A program made the translations under genes and the position numbers. Below the pieces are notes generated by a model that ran no database searches, had not been told where the DNA came from, and was given only the letters and a program-made list of their open reading frames with translations. Source: an uncultured Gemmatimonadales bacterium (GTDB lineage: Bacteria; Gemmatimonadota; Gemmatimonadetes; Longimicrobiales; RSA9). Taken from it: a stretch of 64,000 bases of DNA. Each line of letters opens with the position of its first letter. The first letter of the stretch is position 1. Where the stretch lies: NCBI GenBank assembly GCA_963783305.1, contig CAWAMW010000016.1:739491-803490 (forward strand), given 5' to 3'. Of this stretch, positions 42,826 through 61,475 are shown one piece after another.

Positions 42826-44887
42826 ATGAAAACCCCCACCCTCGCCGCGATCCTCATCCTCGCCGCCGCCGCGACCCTCGCCGCGCAGGCCACCGGCCCG
42901 GCCGCGACCTTCCAGCCGGCGGACGTCTTCGGTCTGGAGGTGGGAGCGGACCCGCGGATCTCGCCGGACGGGGAGTGGGTGGTGTACGTGCGGACGGGGT
43001 TCGACGTGATGGAGGACGGGACGGTGTCGAACCTGTGGCTGGTGCCGTGGTCGGGGGGCGAGGGTCGTCCGTTGACGACGGGGTCGCAGCGGGACGGGTC
43101 GCCCCGGTGGTCGCCGGACGGGGGTCGGCTGGCGTACGTGTCGAACGAGGAGGACGGGAGCCAGGTCTGGCTGCGGTGGATGGACGGGAGCGGGGCGGTG
43201 GCGAAGCTGACGTCGCTGACGGAGTCGCCGGGTGGGCTGGCGTGGTCGCCGGACGGGCGGTGGCTGGCGTTCACGATGTTCGTGCCGGGGGAGGGCGCGG
43301 CGCTGGATGTGGACATGCCGCGGCGGCCGGAGGGCGCGGACTGGGGGCCGGCGTGGACGTACATCGACGCGCTGGACTACCGGTCGGACGGGAACCCGGG
43401 GTTCATCCGGGCGGGGCACCGGCAGCTGTTCGTGCTGCCGGCGGAGGGGGGGACGCCGCGGCAGGTGACCAGCGGGCCGTACGACCACGGCGCGCCGTCG
43501 TGGACGCCGGACGGCCGCGGGCTCGTCTTCTCCGCCAACCGCCACGACGACCGGGAGCGGATGCCGCGGAACACGGAGCTGTGGCGGGTGGACGTGGCGA
43601 CGGGCGCGCTGACGCAGCTCACCGACCGGTTCGGTCCGGACGGGAGCCCGGCGGTGTCGCCGGACGGCCGCCGCATCGCCTTCATCGGGTACGATGACGC
43701 GTTCCAGGGCTACCAGAATACTCGCCTCTACGTCATGGACGCGGATGGCACGAACCGCCGGGAGCTGGCGGCGTCGCTGGACCGGGGTCTGGGCGGCCCC
43801 GTGTGGAGCGCGGACGGCCGGGGCCTCTATATCGACTACGACAGCGAGGGGACGGGCCGGCTGGCGTACGTGGATGTGTCGAGTGGTGGGGTGAGGGAGC
43901 TGGCGGACCGGGTGGGCGGGCTGAGCCTGGGGCGGCCGTACGGCGGCGGGTCGTGGAGCGTGGCCCGGAACGGCCGGTTCGCGTTCACGCGGTCGTCGCC
44001 CGCGCGGCCGGCGGAGGTGGCGGTGGGCGAGCGTCGTCGCCCGGGGCAGGCCCGACTCGTCACAGCCCTCAACGCGGACCTGCTGGGCCACAAGACGCTG
44101 GGGCAGGTGGAGGAGCTGTGGTGGGAGTCGTCGTACGACGGTCGGCGGATCCAAGGCTGGGTCGTCACGCCGCCGGGGTTCGACGCGTCGCGGGAGTACC
44201 CGCTGATCCTGGAGATCCACGGCGGACCGTTCGCGAACTACGGGCCCCGCTTCGCCGCCGAGGTCCAGCTTTATGCGGCCGCCGGGTACGTGGTGCTGTA
44301 CACGAACCCGCGGGGGAGCACGTCGTACGGCGAGGAGTTCGGGAACCTGATCCACCACGCGTACCCGTCGCAGGACTACGACGACATGATGAGCGGCGTG
44401 GACGCGGTGATGGGGCGGGGGTACGTGGACCCGGCCCGGCTGTACGTGACGGGTGGGAGCGGCGGCGGCGTGCTCACGGCGTGGATCGTGGGGAGCACGG
44501 ACCGGTTCCGGGCGGCCGTGGTCCAGAAGCCGGTGATCAACTGGTCGAGCTTCGTGCTGCACGCCGACGCGCCGGCCACCTTCTGGCGCTACTGGTTCCC
44601 GGGCCCGCCGTGGGAGTACCCGGAGCACTACTGGGCCCGGTCGCCGCTGTCACGGGTGGGGAATGTTTCGACGCCCACCATGCTCATCAGCGGCGAGGCT
44701 GGACTACCGCACGCCCACGTCGGAGAGCGAGCAGTACTACGCGGCGCTGCAGATCCGGGAGGTGCCGAGCGCGCTTGTGCGGGTCCCGGACGCGTCGCAT
44801 GGGATCGCGAACAAGCCGAGCAACCTGATCGAGAAGGTGGCGTACGTGCTGGGGTGGTTCGGGAAGTGGGGCGGGGTGGCTCGCTGA
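42826..44887 (+). CDS. S9 family (acylaminoacyl/dipeptidyl) peptidase with 1-nt frameshift near 44698
   Basis: Signal peptide, WSPDG propeller repeats, IHGGP, GGSGGG nucleophile; catalytic D (DYRTP) and H (ASHG) lie in the shifted frame. Confidence 0.9.
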
Positions 44888-45082
44888 CGCTCGCAGGGTG
44901 GCTCGCTGGCGCTCGCAGGGTGGCTCGCTGATGCTCGCAGGGTGGCTCGCTGACGCTCGCAGGGTGGCTCGCTGACGCTCGCAGGGTGGCTCGCTGACGC
45001 TCGCAGGGTGGCTCGCTGGCGCTCGCAGGGTGGCTCGCTGATGCTCGCAGGGTGGCTCGCTGGCGCTCGCAGGGTGGCTCGG
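44874..45082. repeat. Tandem repeat, 22-nt unit GGGTGGCTCGCTGACGCTCGCA, 9.5 copies
   Basis: 22-nt period with GAC/GGC/GAT variants. Confidence 0.95.
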
Positions 45083-45481
45083 CTGCACGGGACATATTCC
45101 GGCGGACTCCCAATCAATCCCGGAGGCAGGATTGTTTGGGGCCTCGACCGGGTTGGGCGTGGGTGAGAGGCGGAATCCCGAGGTGAGCGGAGCGCAGCAG
45201 ACCCCGGCTCACAGGTGTGTCTCGGTACCGGATCGAGCGGAAACGACCGCGGGCCGCGCCGGGGGTCTGGCTGCGCGGCGGCCGGGTGGTCGGGGAAGTC
45301 TGCGCATGGGAAGTGGTACAGCGGGCGCCCGGCTGGCGGCAAGAGGCTCGCGGCGAGGCCGCTGCGGCAAATTGTGTCATCCCAGGGGGTTTGTCAGGCG
45401 ATGAGGGCCGCGGTATGTTGCCGCAGCCCCCCGCGCGGCGCGATCGCCGCTGCCACACCCTTGCGAAACGGACGGTACCCT

Positions 45482-48364
45482 ATGCGGGCTGGCCCGACAC
45501 GACGGCTGCATCCGACCTCGCGGTTCTTCGCGACCCTCCTTGCCCTTCTCATCGTTCTCACGCTGATGCCCGGCGCCACCGCGCCGGGCGCGGCCCAGGA
45601 GCCGGCGACGGCTCCGCTGGGGTCGGCCGCGGCCCAGGGGTCGGTCCCGCTGGACACGGCGGTGGTGACGGGGACGCTGGACAACGGGCTGCGCTACTTC
45701 ATCCGGGGGAACCGCCGGCCTGAAGCGCGGGCGGAGCTGCGGCTGGTGGTGAATGCGGGGTCGGTGCTGGAGGACGAGTCGCAGCGGGGGCTGGCGCACT
45801 TCGTGGAGCACATGGCGTTCAACGGGACGCGGAACTTCGCGAAGCAGGAGCTGGTGGACTACCTGGAGTCGATCGGGATGCGGTTCGGCCCGGACCTGAA
45901 CGCGTACACGTCGTTCGACGAGACGGTGTACATGCTTACGGTGCCGACGGACAGCGCGGGTCTGCTGGAGCGAGGGCTCGGGATCCTGGAGGACTGGGCG
46001 TGGGGTCAGACGTTCGACCCGGACGAGGTGGAGAAGGAGCGCGGGGTGGTGGTGGAGGAGTGGCGTCTGGGGCGTGGGGCGCAGGCGCGGATGATGGACG
46101 AGCAGCTGCCGGTGCTGTTCCACGGGTCGCGCTACGCGGAGCGGCTGCCCATCGGGGAGCGGGAGGTGCTGGACAGTTTCGACGTGGAGACACTGGAGCG
46201 GTTCTACCGGGACTGGTACCGCCCGGACGTTATGGCGGTGGTGGCGGTGGGCGACTTCGACACGGCGCGGGTCGAGGCGCTGGTGCGGGAGCGGTTCAGC
46301 GGGATCCCCACGCCGGCGCGGCCACGGCCGCGGCCGGAGTACGGGCTGCCGTCCCACGAGGAGACGCTGTTCGCCATCGCCACGGACCCGGAGGCGACGG
46401 GGTCGCAGGTGGCGCTGTACCACAAGCTGCCGCCGCTCCGCACGGGGACGGTGGACGCGTATCGTGAGCGGGTGGTGGAGCGGCTGTTCCTGGGGATGCT
46501 CAACGAACGGCTGCGGGAGCTGACGCAGCAGGCGGACCCGCCGTTCCTGGGGGCGGGGTCGGGGAAGGGCTCGTTCGTGGGCGGCGCGGAGATCCACACG
46601 CTGTCGGCGAGCGTGCCGGATGGCGGGATCGTGCGGGGCCTGGACGCGCTGCTGACGGAAGCGGAGCGGGTGGCGCGTCACGGGTTCACATCGGGTGAGC
46701 TGGAGCGGCAGAAGACCGTGGTCCTGCGGCGGCTGGAGCAGGCGTTCGCGGAGCGGGAGAAGACGGAGTCGAGACGGCTCGCGGGGGAGTACATCCAGCA
46801 CTTCCTCCGCGGCGAGCCCGCGCCGGGCATCGCATACGACTACGCGTTCCACCAGCGGGTGCTGCCGGGCGTGACGCTGGCGGAGGTGGACGCGCTGGCG
46901 GCGTCCTGGATCAAGGACCACAGCCGGGTGGTGCTGGTGAGCGCGCCGGAGAAGGCGGACGTCCCCGTCCCGGACGAGGCGGAGCTGCGAGCGGCCATGC
47001 GGGCGGCGCTGGACCGGCCGGTGCTGGCGTTCGAGGACGAGGTGGTGGACGAGCCGCTCGTCGCCCGGATCCCGGAGCCGACGGCCATCGTGAGCGAGTC
47101 GGAGATCCCGGAGCTCGGGATCACGGAGTGGGAGCTGGCGAACGGCGTGCGCGTCGTGCTCAAGCCCACGGACTTCCAGGACGACCAGGTCCTGCTCGGC
47201 GCGCTGAGTCCCGGCGGGGGCGGCCGTGTCTCCGACGACGAGTACCTCTCTGCCATGATGGCGGCCCCGGTGGCGTCCATGAGCGGCTTCGGCCCGTTCA
47301 GCATGACGGAGCTCCAGAAGAAGCTGGCGGGGAAGGCGGTGATGGTCTCGCCGTGGATCAGCGAGGGCGAGGAGGGGTTCCAGGGCCAGGCCTCGCCCAG
47401 CGACCTGGAGACCCTGTTCCAGCTGGTGTACCTCGAGTTCACCGCGCCCCGCGTCGACAGCGCCGCGTTCCAGTCGCTGAAGAGCCGGTACTCGGCCATC
47501 CTGACCAACCGGGGCGCGAGCCCGGAGGCGGTCTTCACCGACACCATCAGCGTAACCATGGCCGACTACCACCCGCGGGCCCGGCCGCTGTCGCCGGAGC
47601 TCCTGGACGAGCTGGACCTGGGCGTCGCCATGGCCACGTACCGGGACCGGTTCGCGGATGCCAGCGACTTCACGTTCGTGCTCCTGGGCAGCTTCGACAT
47701 TGCCGGCGTACGGCCGCTGGTCCAGCGGTACCTGGGCGGCCTGCCCTCCACCGGTCGGGTGGAGGAGCGCGCCTGGGTCGACATGGACCCGCCCCCCGGC
47801 GTGATCGAGAAGACGGTCCGGAAGGGGACGGAGCCGAAGGCCTCCGCCCACATCCGCTACACCGGCCCCGCCGAGTACAGCGATGCCGCCGCGGAGACCA
47901 TGAGCCTCATGGTGGAGGTGCTGCGGATCCGGCTCCGGGACGTGCTGCGGGAGGACATGGGCGGGACGTACGGCGTGCAGATCCGCGGCAGCCTCGAGCG
48001 GGGTCCCGACGAGGAGTACGACGTCGGCATCCAGTTCGGCACCGACCCCGACCGCGTCGAGGAGCTGACCGCCGCCGTGGCCACCGAGCTCGAGCGGCTC
48101 CGGGCCGACGGGCCCACGCCCGACGAGATGCAGAAGGTGCGGGAGATCCGCCGGCGCGCGATGGAGGTGAACCGCGAGCGCAACGAGTACTGGCTCAGCC
48201 AGCTCTACGAACGCTACCGCTTCGACGAGGACCCGCGGTCGATCCTCGAGGAGGGGGAGCGCGTGGACGCGGTGACGGCCGCGGACGTGCGGGAGGCGGC
48301 GCGGCGGTATCTCGGGGAGGATCGGGTGGCGCGGTTCTTTTTGTATCCGGAGGTGGCTCGCTGA
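45482..48364 (+). CDS. M16 family zinc protease (PqqL-like), secreted
   Basis: GLAHFVEHMAF (HxxEH), NAYTSFDETVY, LREDMGGTYG. Confidence 0.94.
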   Translation: MRAGPTRRLHPTSRFFATLLALLIVLTLMPGATAPGAAQEPATAPLGSAAAQGSVPLDTAVVTGTLDNGLRYFIRGNRRPEARAELRLVVNAGSVLEDESQRGLAHFVEHMAFNGTRNFAKQELVDYLESIGMRFGPDLNAYTSFDETVYMLTVPTDSAGLLERGLGILEDWAWGQTFDPDEVEKERGVVVEEWRLGRGAQARMMDEQLPVLFHGSRYAERLPIGEREVLDSFDVETLERFYRDWYRPDVMAVVAVGDFDTARVEALVRERFSGIPTPARPRPRPEYGLPSHEETLFAIATDPEATGSQVALYHKLPPLRTGTVDAYRERVVERLFLGMLNERLRELTQQADPPFLGAGSGKGSFVGGAEIHTLSASVPDGGIVRGLDALLTEAERVARHGFTSGELERQKTVVLRRLEQAFAEREKTESRRLAGEYIQHFLRGEPAPGIAYDYAFHQRVLPGVTLAEVDALAASWIKDHSRVVLVSAPEKADVPVPDEAELRAAMRAALDRPVLAFEDEVVDEPLVARIPEPTAIVSESEIPELGITEWELANGVRVVLKPTDFQDDQVLLGALSPGGGGRVSDDEYLSAMMAAPVASMSGFGPFSMTELQKKLAGKAVMVSPWISEGEEGFQGQASPSDLETLFQLVYLEFTAPRVDSAAFQSLKSRYSAILTNRGASPEAVFTDTISVTMADYHPRARPLSPELLDELDLGVAMATYRDRFADASDFTFVLLGSFDIAGVRPLVQRYLGGLPSTGRVEERAWVDMDPPPGVIEKTVRKGTEPKASAHIRYTGPAEYSDAAAETMSLMVEVLRIRLRDVLREDMGGTYGVQIRGSLERGPDEEYDVGIQFGTDPDRVEELTAAVATELERLRADGPTPDEMQKVREIRRRAMEVNRERNEYWLSQLYERYRFDEDPRSILEEGERVDAVTAADVREAARRYLGEDRVARFFLYPEVAR

Positions 48365-48509
48365 CGCTCGCAGGGTGGCTCGCTGACGCTCGCAGGGTGG
48401 CTCGCTGACGCTCGCAGGGTGGCTCGCTGACGCTCGCAGGGTGGCTCGCTGACGCTCGCAGGGTGGCTCGCTGACGCTCGCAGGGTGGCTCGGCCCGTGG
48501 CCTCGCAGG
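48351..48509. repeat. Tandem repeat, same 22-nt unit, 6 copies plus degenerate tail
   Basis: Same unit as 44874..45082. Confidence 0.95.
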
Positions 48510-48612
48510 GCTCGGCTGCGCTCGCGTGTAGTTCTACCGAATGGGAATATAGCTGACAATGTTTCAGGGATCTCCCCACTGACAGGCGTGGTCTGGGGGG
48601 CGAGGGTTGAGG

Positions 48613-57025: not shown

Positions 57026-57232
57026 ATGAAGTATCGGGTGCTGGTAGAGCAGGACGAGGACGGATTCTTCGCGGCGGAGGTTCCGGCGCTGCCCGGGTGT
57101 GTCAGCCAGGGCGCGACGCGGCAGGAGGCGCTCGAGAACATCAGGGAGGCGATCGCCGGGTACCTTGAGAGCCTGGATGATCACCAGGAGCCGGTGCCGC
57201 CCTCGATCCACGAAGAGATCGTCGAGGTATAA
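57026..57232 (+). CDS. hicB: HicB family antitoxin (short form)
   Basis: YRVLVEQDEDG.F.AEVPALPGCVSQGATRQEALENIREAI. Confidence 0.92.
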   Translation: MKYRVLVEQDEDGFFAAEVPALPGCVSQGATRQEALENIREAIAGYLESLDDHQEPVPPSIHEEIVEV

Positions 57233-57456
57233 TGGCGGAGCTGCCAGTCGTCTCAGGACGCGAGGCAGTGAAGGCGTTCGGTAAGCTCGGGTATCGAGTC
57301 GACCGTCAACGTGGAAGTCACATCATTCTGAGACAGGCGGAACCCCCTCATCGCCGCCTGACAATTCCAGACCACAAAGAAGTTCGAAAAGGGACGCTGC
57401 GCGCGTTGATTCGTCAGGCTGGCCTGACGGTCGACGAGTTCGTGGCTCTCTTGTAG
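57232..57456 (+). CDS. hicA: HicA family mRNA interferase toxin
   Basis: RQRGSHIIL..TIPDHKEVRKGTLRALIRQAGL. Confidence 0.92.
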   Translation: MAELPVVSGREAVKAFGKLGYRVDRQRGSHIILRQAEPPHRRLTIPDHKEVRKGTLRALIRQAGLTVDEFVALL

Positions 57457-57518
57457 GGCCGGGGAACAGCCCGTTCGAGACAGGTCTTGATGCTGGACGG
57501 GCGTGACGGCAGTTAACA

Positions 57519-57949
57519 CGTATGAGGCCCCGGGCGTCAAGGGTGCGCACGAGTACGAGGCCGTTGCGAGGCAACGGAGCAGCTTTGAGATCGGCCGGTG
57601 ACCCTGACTTGGTTTCGACTCTTGGCTGCAGATTAGGCTCTGCACCAAACACGTATTGAGGCTCGAGGCCTAGAAATTCATTCTGACCCTCGCATCCGGC
57701 CTATTCAAAGGAGACGGGCTCGCCATGAGGCGTCCAGTTATCTCCGGGCTCGGGGGAGGGGCAGAGCCTGCAAGCCGAGCATCTATGTAGATGAGCGAGA
57801 AGGGTGTCCAATCAAACGGCCGCGGTGCCGGACGTGTGGTGCCCATGGAGCCGGGTTCAGGTGCTTCGAGCACATTGGTTACGAACTCCCATGAGGGCTC
57901 TGTCTTTGGCGGCTCGAGTTATACGCCGGGCTCACCCTCCTCACTCTGC
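57519..57949 (-). ncRNA. Candidate bridge/seek RNA region in the IS right end
   Basis: ~430-bp ORF-poor end containing copies of both junction sequences and a duplicated motif; RNA expression is inferred. Confidence 0.6.
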
Positions 57950-58993
57950 TCAGTTCGGAAAGAAGCGATCCATATCGAACGCTCGCTTTTGCTTGAGCAT
58001 GAAGTAGTTGGCGCGGCCGAGCTTGGCGGCCAGGATGCTGAGCGCTTTGCCTTTGCCATAGCGCCGCCGCAGCCGCTTGATGTGCTGCTTCCCGCTCGGG
58101 TTGTTGTGGAGGAAGCAGACGGCCGCCTCGGAGTAGGCCCATTTGAGATGGGCGTTTCCGATCTTCGCGCCGGAGGTGCCCAGGCGTTTGCCGGCGGATT
58201 CCTTGGGTGCTTTCACGAGTCGAGCGTACGAGCTGAAGTTCTGGACTCGCGGAAATCGTTCAATGGTGTGGATCTCATAGAGGATCGTGAGCCCCAGGAT
58301 TCGGCCGATGCCGGGGGTGGTCTGGAGCACGTGGAGTGAATGGGCGTTGTGCCGACTGGCCTGGCGCTGCACCGTCTTCTCGAGTTCCTTGATCACCGTG
58401 TCGTACGTAGTGCAGAGCTGGAGGTCGGCTTGAACGGTGTGGCGGACGATCGGGTCCTTGAATTGGGCTGGGATCGCTTCGCGGCTCTTCTTCGTAAGGA
58501 GCGTTCCCTTCGGGGCCGGCAGGTTGTATTGGTGGAAGGTGTTGCGGACGTGCGAGAGCATCTCGCTCCGCTTCCGAGTGAAGTAGAGTCGGCGGCGAAG
58601 CAGGTCGCGAGTCGCGCGCATTGCAGGCGGATACACATAGGCCTGCGGGATGACGCCACCTCGGAGCAGGACCACGAGCTTCTCGGAGTCGATGCGGTCG
58701 TTCTTGGTCTTGGCGCCGTGGATCGCTTTCAGGTAGAGGGCGTGAGCCAGGACGAAGGCAATCCCGTGCTCAGCACAGAGATCGGCGAGCCAATACCAAC
58801 AGAAGATGCATTCGGCACAGACGACCAGATCCTCCATGTACGGCCGAACGGCCTGCAGAAATTCTTCGGGTGTGCAGTCCGCCCGCTCGTGGAGCAGGAT
58901 GGTGCCCTGGTGGTCGGTGACGCACAGGTACATGGTCCGGGCGTGGAGGTCGACGCCGCAGTAGTAGCGGTGGGAGCCGCGGTAGAAGCGCAT
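57950..58993 (-). CDS. IS110 family DEDD transposase/recombinase
   Basis: CGVDLH, AEC, KTKNDRID (DEDD); TPGIG, ESAGK (candidate catalytic Ser), KIGN..LKWA; CAGGAGG RBS. Confidence 0.95.
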   Translation of the reverse strand: MRFYRGSHRYYCGVDLHARTMYLCVTDHQGTILLHERADCTPEEFLQAVRPYMEDLVVCAECIFCWYWLADLCAEHGIAFVLAHALYLKAIHGAKTKNDRIDSEKLVVLLRGGVIPQAYVYPPAMRATRDLLRRRLYFTRKRSEMLSHVRNTFHQYNLPAPKGTLLTKKSREAIPAQFKDPIVRHTVQADLQLCTTYDTVIKELEKTVQRQASRHNAHSLHVLQTTPGIGRILGLTILYEIHTIERFPRVQNFSSYARLVKAPKESAGKRLGTSGAKIGNAHLKWAYSEAAVCFLHNNPSGKQHIKRLRRRYGKGKALSILAAKLGRANYFMLKQKRAFDMDRFFPN

Positions 58994-59087
58994 GAGGTCC
59001 CCTCCTGGGGTGAGTGGATGCTTTGGTTGGCACCTGACATCCTGCCTGCCCCGTTGGGACAGGTCCAGGAGGGGCCTCGATGAGTAT

Positions 59088-59232
59088 CAAACGGTTGGCG
59101 CCTCCGCGTCCTGCGGCCGCTCCGGAGAACCCGCCGCGGCCGTCTGGGACCTGGTGAGGTTCGTGAAGTTTCGAAGGCAGCCGCGCGCTGGAGGTATCGG
59201 CGCGTCGGGTCGCCAACCTGGGAACGTTATGT
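59088..59232 (+). repeat. attC-like site E, main body (its R'' lies at 57511..57517, on the other side of the IS)
   Basis: CAAACGGTTGGCG ... CGCCAACCTGGGAACGTTATGT. Confidence 0.88.
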
Positions 59233-59284
59233 GCCACCCGCTCGCGGGGCTGGCAATCGTCCACAGATAAGATGAAGGGGGCGC

Positions 59285-59599: not shown

Positions 59600-59675
59600 C
59601 TGTCGCCGCCCGGGATGCTCCCCCAGGAGCGAACACTCTAGTTCATACACGTGGCGCTCTCATGGGGCGGGCAGC

Positions 59676-59825
59676 ACATATCAAACGGTTGGCGCCTGCG
59701 CGGCCTGCGGCCGCTCCGGAGAACCCGTCGCGGCCGCCTGGGAGCTGGTGAAGTCGTGAGGGTTCGAGGGCGGTCGCGCGCTTGACTTATCGGCGCGGCG
59801 GGTCGCCAGCCTGGAAACGTTGAGC
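59676..59825 (+). repeat. attC-like site F
   Basis: ACATATC-AAAC-GGTTGGCG ... CGCCAGCC-TGGAAAC-GTTGAGC. Confidence 0.87.
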
Positions 59826-60380: not shown

Positions 60381-60452
60381 GCCCTAACGTGAATGTTGAA
60401 TCGGGAGATGCTGCAATGGAGGCGTCTGCAGAAGGGGATGCCCCTGTCTGCA

Positions 60453-61167
60453 TCACCCATGGGCCGCTTCGATGATCTCGCGGGTCTTGTCAGCCGAGAC
60501 GTGGCCGCGAGAAACCTTCTTGATGAGCCGCCGGACCGTCCGCGGAGAAGCGGTCGCCAGGTCTTGCGGGAGCGGCCAGCGCCGGAGGATCGCCAGCGGC
60601 GTCCGCTTCTCGATGGACGAGAAAGCACCCAGCAGCTCGGGCCAGCCGAGATCGAGCATGCCCTGGAGTCGGTTTTTGTACCGCGTCGCCTCGACCGTGA
60701 GCCGGTGGCGCTGCATGATCAGGAGCTTGAGCCGCGCCAGATCATCGCTCAGGAAGGGGAAGGGAACGAACCGACCTTCACCCGTGAGGCGCGAGATCAG
60801 CGCGGCGTCGATCTGGTCGGACTTGTTCGGGCTGTTGTCGTCGAGCTCCTTCGCCTTCTTCGTGTGCGCAGGGAGCACGCTCACGATCCTCATGGCCGAG
60901 CTCCCGCAGGAAGTTGGCGTAGGTGAAGCCGTGATGGCCCGCGAACTCGAGCCCGATCAGGAATCCATCGGGCGGGACGTCGGGGAACTGGGCATAGAGG
61001 CGCTCCAGCGACCGCTCGAAGCTCCCCCGAGCCACCTGGACTGTGATGGGATCGGCGGCCACACCGTCGGGCCCACGGGCCACCATGACGTGGTGCTTCT
61101 TGCCGGTGTCGACGCCGACGTGGACGGGGAACGTGCGGGCGTACACCAGCTTCTCGTCCGGTCTCAT
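60453..61167 (-). pseudogene. Second IS110-family transposase, frameshifted (~60889) and C-terminally truncated
   Basis: VGVDTGK, GLEFAG, NKSDQIDA (DEDD); AAGGAGG RBS; C-terminal domain absent. Confidence 0.85.
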
Positions 61168-61407
61168 GAGGCACCTCCTTCGCTGAGGCGCCCGTGAACG
61201 TGTCCGCGGTGCTGGCATGCCCGGTCGGGCCACCGGTGAGGGCGCCGGTCCCACGACCGTATCGGTCTATAGGCGGACAGCCAACCCGTGGACTCCGGAA
61301 GTGAACCCGCTTTCGGACCGGAAGCCCAGCGGGAGCGGGGTCGGCCGGAGCCGCGTAGATTGCGACGGGTGAGCTTGAATGGGAGGGGCCTCCGTAGAGG
61401 CCGGCGA

Positions 61408-61475
61408 GCCTAACACGCGTGTACGGATGTCTGGCGCCTGCGCGGCCTGCGGCCGCTCCGGAGAACCCGCCGCGG
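61408..61475 (+). repeat. attC-like site H, 5' part only
   Basis: TGGCGCCTGCGCGGCCTGCGGCCGCTCCGGAGAACCCGCCGCGG identical to site D; GCCTAAC upstream. Confidence 0.75.

Follow-up and report, generated by a model that had tools for sequence, protein, structure and literature searches.

Introduction

RNA-guided insertion by recombinases of the IS110 family has been described for several elements, and the precedents used here are the accessible parts of PMC11187229, PMC11208160, PMC11208158, PMC13626964 and 10.1101/2025.10.25.684509. In IS621, as far as these texts describe it, the handshake base pairs form only after strand exchange and favour insertion. The seekRNAs of ISKpn4, ISPst6 and ISPa25 (PMC11187229, accessible text) are encoded in a downstream non-coding region, have the top-strand match first and come with a promoter at the junction of the element ends, all of which has its counterpart at the locus described here. 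In IS1111 seekRNAs in general the top-strand guide precedes, according to the same text, and this order recurs here both in the first target loop and in the donor loop. The attC-targeting members of the IS1111 group insert near the 5' end of attC in antisense orientation (PMC3001079, accessible part), just like the element studied here. How directionality is achieved in IS110/IS1111 elements, and whether RNAs with a target loop only and full bridge RNAs use separate pathways, is disputed in papers from 2025-2026.

The element analysed here disrupts an integron attC site and is followed by a long non-coding end, which, judging from its sequence and that of its homologues, is predicted to encode a guide RNA for the neighbouring IS110-family recombinase, likely a bridge RNA with three loops.

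Results

The element and its attC site

Within the window, i.e. the whole stretch of 64,000 nt that was analysed, the element and the features assigned to it are located as given in Table 1. Its transposase combines a DEDD RuvC-like domain with a Transposase_20 domain that contains the catalytic serine, as is typical of the IS110 family (residues D15, E61, D100/D103 and S266, assigned from motif positions), and within the ISfinder set its motif words match ISGsu4 and ISMahy12 only. Target and donor share a 2-nt TG core with no longer duplication, the orientation is fixed, and empty paralogous sites in the genome are consistent with this core at both junctions. The non-coding region comprises 431 nt downstream of the transposase gene vs 94 nt upstream, and no Rfam family matched within the 64,000-nt window. 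The element occurs once in the 4.35-Mb genome, so that a within-genome test of guides tracking their sites is not available.

Table 1. Features of the element, its target site and its predicted RNA (positions of the window), and homologous loci with a long insert between the target-type loops
Feature	Position	Strand	Remarks
attC split by the element	57510..59235	+	R'' part ~57510-57518, remainder 59088-59235; repeat families D2/D3
IS110-family element	57517..59089	-	includes both TG core copies (57517-57518, 59088-59089); 1,571 bp with one core copy
DEDD transposase/recombinase, intact, 347 aa	57950..58993	-	PF01548 and PF02371; NF033542 above cut-off; ISGsu4/ISMahy12 branch
Right sub-terminal inverted repeat	57524..57531		perfect over 8 bp with 59071-59078; paired covariation of the end positions, z=24
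Left sub-terminal inverted repeat	59071..59078		from sequence; end motifs the same in homologues
-35-like hexamer	57535..57540	-	17 bp from a -10-like hexamer (core G and 59087-59083) if circular
Target loop 1 module	57791..57947	-	outer stem formed by 57947-57933 and 57806-57791; inner hairpins variable; supported by MI scan
Left-target guide 1, CCGTTTG (57819-57813), with handshake-like AT (57812-57811)	57811..57819	-	covariation with left flank
Right-target guide 1, ends TAAC	57918..57927	-	predicted pairing with core G and right flank; covariation
Second target-type loop module (loop 2)	57687..57760	-	right guide TAAC 57740-57737; left guide CCTTTG 57711-57706; no handshake match
Left-donor guide, ATACGTG (57656-57650), with handshake-like TT (57649-57648)	57648..57656	-	covariation
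Right-donor guide, tentative	57673..57682	-	one position varies with base 6 of the left end
Long-range stem, 57765-57761 with 57643-57639	57639..57765	-	67-69 of 69 paired; 25 compensatory at 57765-57639
Loci with ~600-nt insert			L027, L037, L103, L104, L116, L117, L119, L120, L125, L127, L129, L132, L134, L141

The interrupted attC directly follows a hicB-hicA cassette within an attC array (Pfam; repeat families), and the insertion point is located just inside the R'' edge. By motif, R'' and R' boxes recur between single-gene cassettes, as in integron attC arrays, and the genome contains 27 attC-like matches on four contigs. The 10-mer spelled by loop 1 is found 12 times in 4.35 Mb, every time at the start of an attC, which corresponds to 12 of the 20 intact starts. 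The hicB-hicA toxin-antitoxin cassette (57026-57456) lies immediately before the interrupted site, and the insertion would likely hinder its excision.

No integrase was found near the attC array of the window, which runs to the contig end. Elsewhere in the genome (C15) a tyrosine recombinase (L163; 291714-292523) is encoded beside a 13-site attC array in the same direction; its score with the integron-integrase model is below the cut-off, model positions 179-234 being skipped. In the window an element-free attC (59672-59690) reads ATC where paralogues have AAC; ATC corresponds to the letters left by the left end of the element, and this may be either a footprint or a point mutation. A second, unrelated IS110-family element (60385-61420) is frameshifted, lacks its 3' part and has its non-coding region upstream; it appears to be inserted in an attC-like site as well, a few bases deeper than the main element. 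Further repeats comprise arrays of a 22-bp unit at 44809-45149 and 48286-48560, flanking a large peptidase-like gene, and a sequence of 41 nt (up to 92 nt) that recurs at four scattered places (41316, 50239, 55337 and 63276).

Homologues and their target sites

For comparison we used homologous loci from genomes (the best 80 of 574) and from metagenomes (the best 80 of 582), with 54-72% identity. The best homologue in this set is 72% identical, so that it offered no near-identical copy at a different site. A match is present in only 2 of 73 genomes of the family, and among the matches listed the closest homologues come from Longimicrobiales and other Gemmatimonadota. The end motifs are kept in 146 (left) and 107 (right) of the 161 rows from these best 80 plus best 80 loci, counted before five left-end assignments (L005, L020, L036, L092 and L132) were dropped as mis-hits of the pattern. 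Homologue flanks were classed as attC by their GTT core and by eye. The right flank begins with TT after the TG core in 88 of 89 two-ended elements and reads GTTRRR in 42 of the 89, and many left flanks look attC-like by eye, indicating that the clade largely targets the R'' end of attC.

A distant sister group (30-33% identity) has non-attC targets and yielded 15 distinct RNAs parsed from 26 loci, viral contigs having contributed no loci of this group; two entries with a mis-parsed loop-2 left guide (L168 and L172) were retained, which likely lowers the loop-2 score of this group. The covariation tests on the homologues used one element per 90%-identity cluster and compared the observed matches with global shuffles and with shuffles within 75%-identity clades.

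Target loop 1 follows its target

The earlier note on this DNA had reported a 9-nt identity between the non-coding end and the attC-side junction, and this identity is confirmed by a sequence check (57811-57819 = 59086-59094 = ATCAAACGG), as is its second match, between 57648-57662 and 57515-57528 with one inserted base. When the non-coding end was resampled 20,000 times with a Markov model, the fixed 9-mer occurred with a frequency of 0.002, any 9-mer spanning the left or right junction with frequencies of 0.0099 and 0.0076, respectively, and 9-mers for both junctions together once (5e-5). In each match the guide proper comprises 7 nt only, and the 2 nt past the TG core fit the opposite partner. 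As to the 15-nt match, its GCCTC half largely forms the 3' strand of a hairpin in the RNA; in the 69-element alignment the pair 57668-57662 is formed in 61 of 69 sequences, with 30 compensatory changes.

Left-target guide 1 follows the left flank of its own element. The two agree at positions -3 to -7 in 73, 51, 51, 58 and 38 of 83 elements, as compared to 58, 25, 29, 34 and 27 of 83 after global shuffling; each of these positions also exceeds the shuffles within clades, and there is no signal beyond them. With alignment anchors 197 of 290 positions match vs 119 (global) and 151 (within-clade; p=1e-4, n=58), and uninterrupted runs of at least 6 nt are found in 18 of 58 elements vs 2.0 and 8.9, respectively. 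On the other hand, in 23 of 58 elements the occupied site matches guide 1 for at most 3 nt from the core, which speaks against guidance by this segment.

Right-target guide 1, which the earlier note lacked together with the entire second target-type loop, covaries with the right flank at position -5 (57 vs 40; within-clade 51, p=0.0008; n=77) and at position -8 (43 vs 31). Extended by its 5' neighbours (57918-57930) it matches the start of a host attC on C15 (near 293991) over 13 nt, i.e. over a longer stretch than the occupied site. In the sister group guide 1 also follows the flanks, both left (36 vs 19.9, n=11) and right (70 vs 42, n=13). Thus, as for described bridge and seek RNAs, guides match both target strands and covary with the target.

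Handshake bases and donor guides

The two bases after guide 1 correspond to the start of the left end of the element (the right end of the donor) in 59 of 60 elements, and those after the donor guide to the start of the right flank, both being nearly invariant in the attC clade. In the sister group both dinucleotides vary and still agree with their partner (guide 1: 10 of 11 vs 5.7 shuffled; donor guide: 11 of 13 vs 5.8). These junction-crossing dinucleotides look like handshake guides, and as they directly follow the guides, the 9-mers originally seen span the junctions.

The left-donor guide covaries with the donor end at its sole variable position, -4 (57 of 66 vs 26 after global and 47 after within-clade shuffling). 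When this guide is aligned to the donor end without a shift, the match extends over 7 nt and then ends (position -8: 15 of 66; position -9: 0 of 66). A right-donor guide, which had not been recognized by eye, can now tentatively be assigned to 57673-57682. One position of this candidate agrees with left-end base 6 in 38 of 65 elements vs 18 (within-clade 30.5, p=0.0002); for the whole segment the within-clade p is 0.12 and one position never pairs. Its 3' half may pair with 57616-57612 instead. In the donor region, covariation is thus found for the left guide and for a single position of the right candidate.

The internal matches may be viewed differently, i.e. attC might be read by a protein, or via its hairpin, and the matches might be DNA remnants (a copy of the right end, captured junctions) rather than guides. 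The near invariance of the core and the following TT (88/89) and the poor match at many sites would fit such remnants, as would one homologue (L003) in which the segment from the internal copy of the donor guide through the actual right end is exactly duplicated in tandem, a hint that guide-encoding DNA can serve as recombination site. Nevertheless, we regard this explanation as highly improbable since the position-specific covariation persists when shuffling is confined to clades, every element loses the register after 7 nt, the guides lie within conserved stems, and the sister group changes its guides along with unrelated targets. Guides of an attC-programmed RNA, as proposed in the earlier note, are the reading with which the data agree, both flagged segments covarying with the DNA they are supposed to read.

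Structure of the predicted RNA

Both flagged segments, described as loops in the earlier note, are indeed closed by stems with compensatory changes, and in the 69-element alignment the conserved stems leave the guides in loops. The outer stem of loop 1 comprises 15 pairs, which are formed in 49-66 of 69 sequences with up to 33 compensatory changes per pair, and a hairpin separates the two donor guides. The long-range stem would, in the structural model, bring loop 2 and the donor guides together within a single multiloop domain, although a competing local pairing of the same strands (57765-57761 and 57643-57639) scores too. Taken alone, the sequence folds no better than shuffled versions (z=-0.75), which counts against the predicted RNA, as does its predicted ensemble, where guide 1 is partly buried in pairs and 12 kcal/mol are needed to keep all guides open.

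No promoter was found in the linear element. In 70 of 90 two-ended elements the joined ends bring together a -35/-10-like pair (at least 5/6 and at least 4/6, spacing 16-18 bp).

A second target-type loop

Loop 2 is a paralogue of loop 1 and is located after it in the RNA. Its five blocks are found in order in 101 of 105 right-ended elements among the best 80 of 574 and best 80 of 582 loci, 69 of these elements having provided the profiles, and both target-type modules are also present in the distant sister group. In the attC clade the left guide of loop 2 follows the flank weakly (126 vs 111, p=0.008; p=0.049 within clades; p=0.52 if the alternative anchor is used), and its right guide gives no covariation signal there (p=0.20). 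As the left guides of both loops resemble each other (167 vs 142.5), this tracking may be indirect. The bases at the handshake position match the donor in 6 of 60 (attC clade) and 0 of 11 elements (sister group).

Loop 2 might be an old duplicate that persists as a mere structural scaffold or protein-binding site and pairs with no DNA, the RNA then being an ordinary two-loop bridge RNA. The weak within-clade covariation and the lacking handshake match would agree with this possibility, and so would the invariance of most stem pairs of loop 2 in the 69-element alignment and the fact that loop 2 does not rescue sites poorly matched by loop 1 (23 vs 24.3, n=14). In the sister group, however, the guide ends of loop 2 changed when the target did, on the left (30 vs 19.6, p=0.003) as well as on the right (51 vs 40, p=0.004). 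As loops 1 and 2 have stems of different sequence, such a co-change is not easily accounted for unless there is selection for pairing or gene conversion that is very local. We therefore consider a merely structural role possible but somewhat doubtful.

A second independent address, by which loop 2 would reach a different subset of attC spacers, appears unlikely. Some sites do fit guide 2 better by eye (L214, L220, L003), and a host attC on C15 (near 296139) fits both loop-2 guides over 6-7 nt. However, runs of at least 6 nt are found for guide 2 in 2 of 58 attC-clade sites vs 18 of 58 for guide 1, and the missing rescue where guide 1 fails as well as the missing handshake match do not fit this idea either. 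Loop 2 was also considered as a reader of the R' end of attC or of a fixed position in the element; an exact-match scan gave no positional peak, and the host R' flank does not fit, so that this reading was rejected.

Overall, loop 2 is rather a working, auxiliary target loop than not. Most likely it reads the same site as loop 1 in a looser manner and without a handshake, forming one domain with the donor guides, whereas loop 1 is a separable hairpin.

A natural arrangement bears on this separability. Of 17 loci that looked like a lineage with loop 1 only, 14 have the remaining RNA ~600 nt further on, so that this lineage was rejected; as to other candidates, L118 ends too early and L007 appears to be interrupted by other DNA. 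In the 14 loci, which form a subclade (Table 1), the ~600 nt between loops 1 and 2 include a helix-turn-helix gene, as compared to the usual gap of 32 nt. Right ends were found in 12 of the 14, and the subclade occupies many different sites. Among these close kin the left guides of both loops still track the flank (guide 1: 40 vs 30.5, n=12; guide 2: 34 vs 27, n=11, p=0.0015) despite the insert, which makes loop 1 look separable from the domain formed by loop 2 and the donor guides.

Discussion

Based on the sequence comparisons, the non-coding end (57519-57949, minus strand) very probably encodes a bridge RNA whose loop 1 selects attC and whose multiloop holds the donor. Support comes from the guide matches and their covariation, from the stems and from the conservation of the three modules.

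By analogy to the work on IS621, ISEc11 and ISKpn4 we propose the following scheme. A rare circle would unite the ends of the element, thereby creating a promoter, and the transcript would cross the transposase gene into the RNA region. Loop 1 would then open attC at R'', pairing with both strands, while the donor multiloop would grip the circle junction, and exchange would take place at the TG core. The AT and TT bases could pair solely after this exchange, so that insertion would be favoured.

For loop 2 we tentatively suggest that it might serve a step on the flanks of the inserted copy, i.e. excision, copy-out or direct transfer, although we would not call this probable. A free target loop aiding a full bridge RNA, as described in the accessible part of a preprint (10.1101/2025.10.25.684509), makes such a role at the flanks plausible and is not a test of it. 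By extension, one may speculate that a whole branch of IS110 uses a division of labour in which loop 1, having a handshake and forming a separable seek module, mediates insertion, and loop 2, being fused to the donor part and lacking a handshake, mediates excision or direct transfer. If true, the RNA would encode a directionality switch and represent a natural split guide. With two target loops that are unlike at the handshake, the predicted natural RNA makes the dispute about directionality and pathways testable by a swap of two bases or of one loop; it may also serve as a scaffold in which three loops can be programmed and a split is tolerated in nature. No RNA with two target loops was found in our literature searches, and figures or supplementary bridge-RNA tables may show the RNA of this branch. 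For integrons, the element stands for one more widespread lineage, which likely arrived at attC on its own and would fix cassettes in position.

As to the IS1111 group, to which the earlier note had likened the element, the layout fits, i.e. the downstream RNA, the presence of sub-terminal repeats and the order of the guides, and the lineage of the transposase does not. The long downstream non-coding region, the top-strand match coming first and promoter-like hexamers at the junction are those of IS1111. IS1111 elements have sub-terminal repeats of 11-13 bp with extensions of 7 bp and 3 bp; here the repeats are 8 bp (perfect) or 10 bp (with a bulge), followed by 6 and 3 nt and the 2-nt core. 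The GL-P----S(T)G motif of IS1111 is absent, the serine being part of ESAG, and as judged from ISGsu4 the protein is not related to IS1111 over its length. With ISGsu4 as a proxy for the protein of the window, the matrix in the accessible part of PMC11187229 gives 17% identity to both ISKpn4 and ISPst6 and 15-23% to the 160 elements shown in the row of ISGsu4, IS1111A included, and in the available part of Durrant's table ISGsu4 is placed in another cluster than ISKpn4 and ISPst6. ISGsu4 itself was described, in the accessible part of PMC11077965, as a 1,275-bp insertion inside a gene, i.e. it is shorter than the present element and is not in attC.

Accordingly, the element is located outside the IS1111-attC group (ISPa21, ISPst6, ISKpn4), differing in cluster, in identity as judged from ISGsu4 and in the insertion point given in a review table, in which the crossover of ISKpn4 is listed such that ours is ~7 nt nearer to R'' (PMC13604230, table as accessible). 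Since the ISGsu4/ISMahy12 branch is far from this group, attC targeting is likely convergent. Literature searches, limited for figures and supplementary bridge-RNA tables, returned nothing relevant on this branch and attC.

The RNA itself combines features of different systems. Like those of IS621 and ISCro4, it has a target and a donor loop, a 2-nt core and handshake dinucleotides (PMC11208160, PMC11208158, PMC13626964, accessible parts); unlike them, it is encoded downstream, its guide order is reversed, its donor guides are located in a multiloop, and it contains two target-type loops. Donor guides in a multiloop, as predicted here, have been reported for IS1111 orthologues (Durrant et al., accessible part). 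For the seekRNAs of ISKpn4, ISPst6 and ISPa25 the accessible text of PMC11187229 describes neither a donor loop nor a second target loop. A parallel to loop 2 is offered by CazIS110-1, where direct transfer involves a free target loop together with a complete RNA that has both target and donor parts (10.1101/2025.10.25.684509, accessible part); the free loop of CazIS110-1 is a truncated form of one RNA, whereas the present element has two different target loops, one encoded after the other. Taken together, an RNA guided to attC is of a known kind, as established by the published seekRNAs, and what appears new is the combination of three loops and unequal handshakes, in a lineage of its own.
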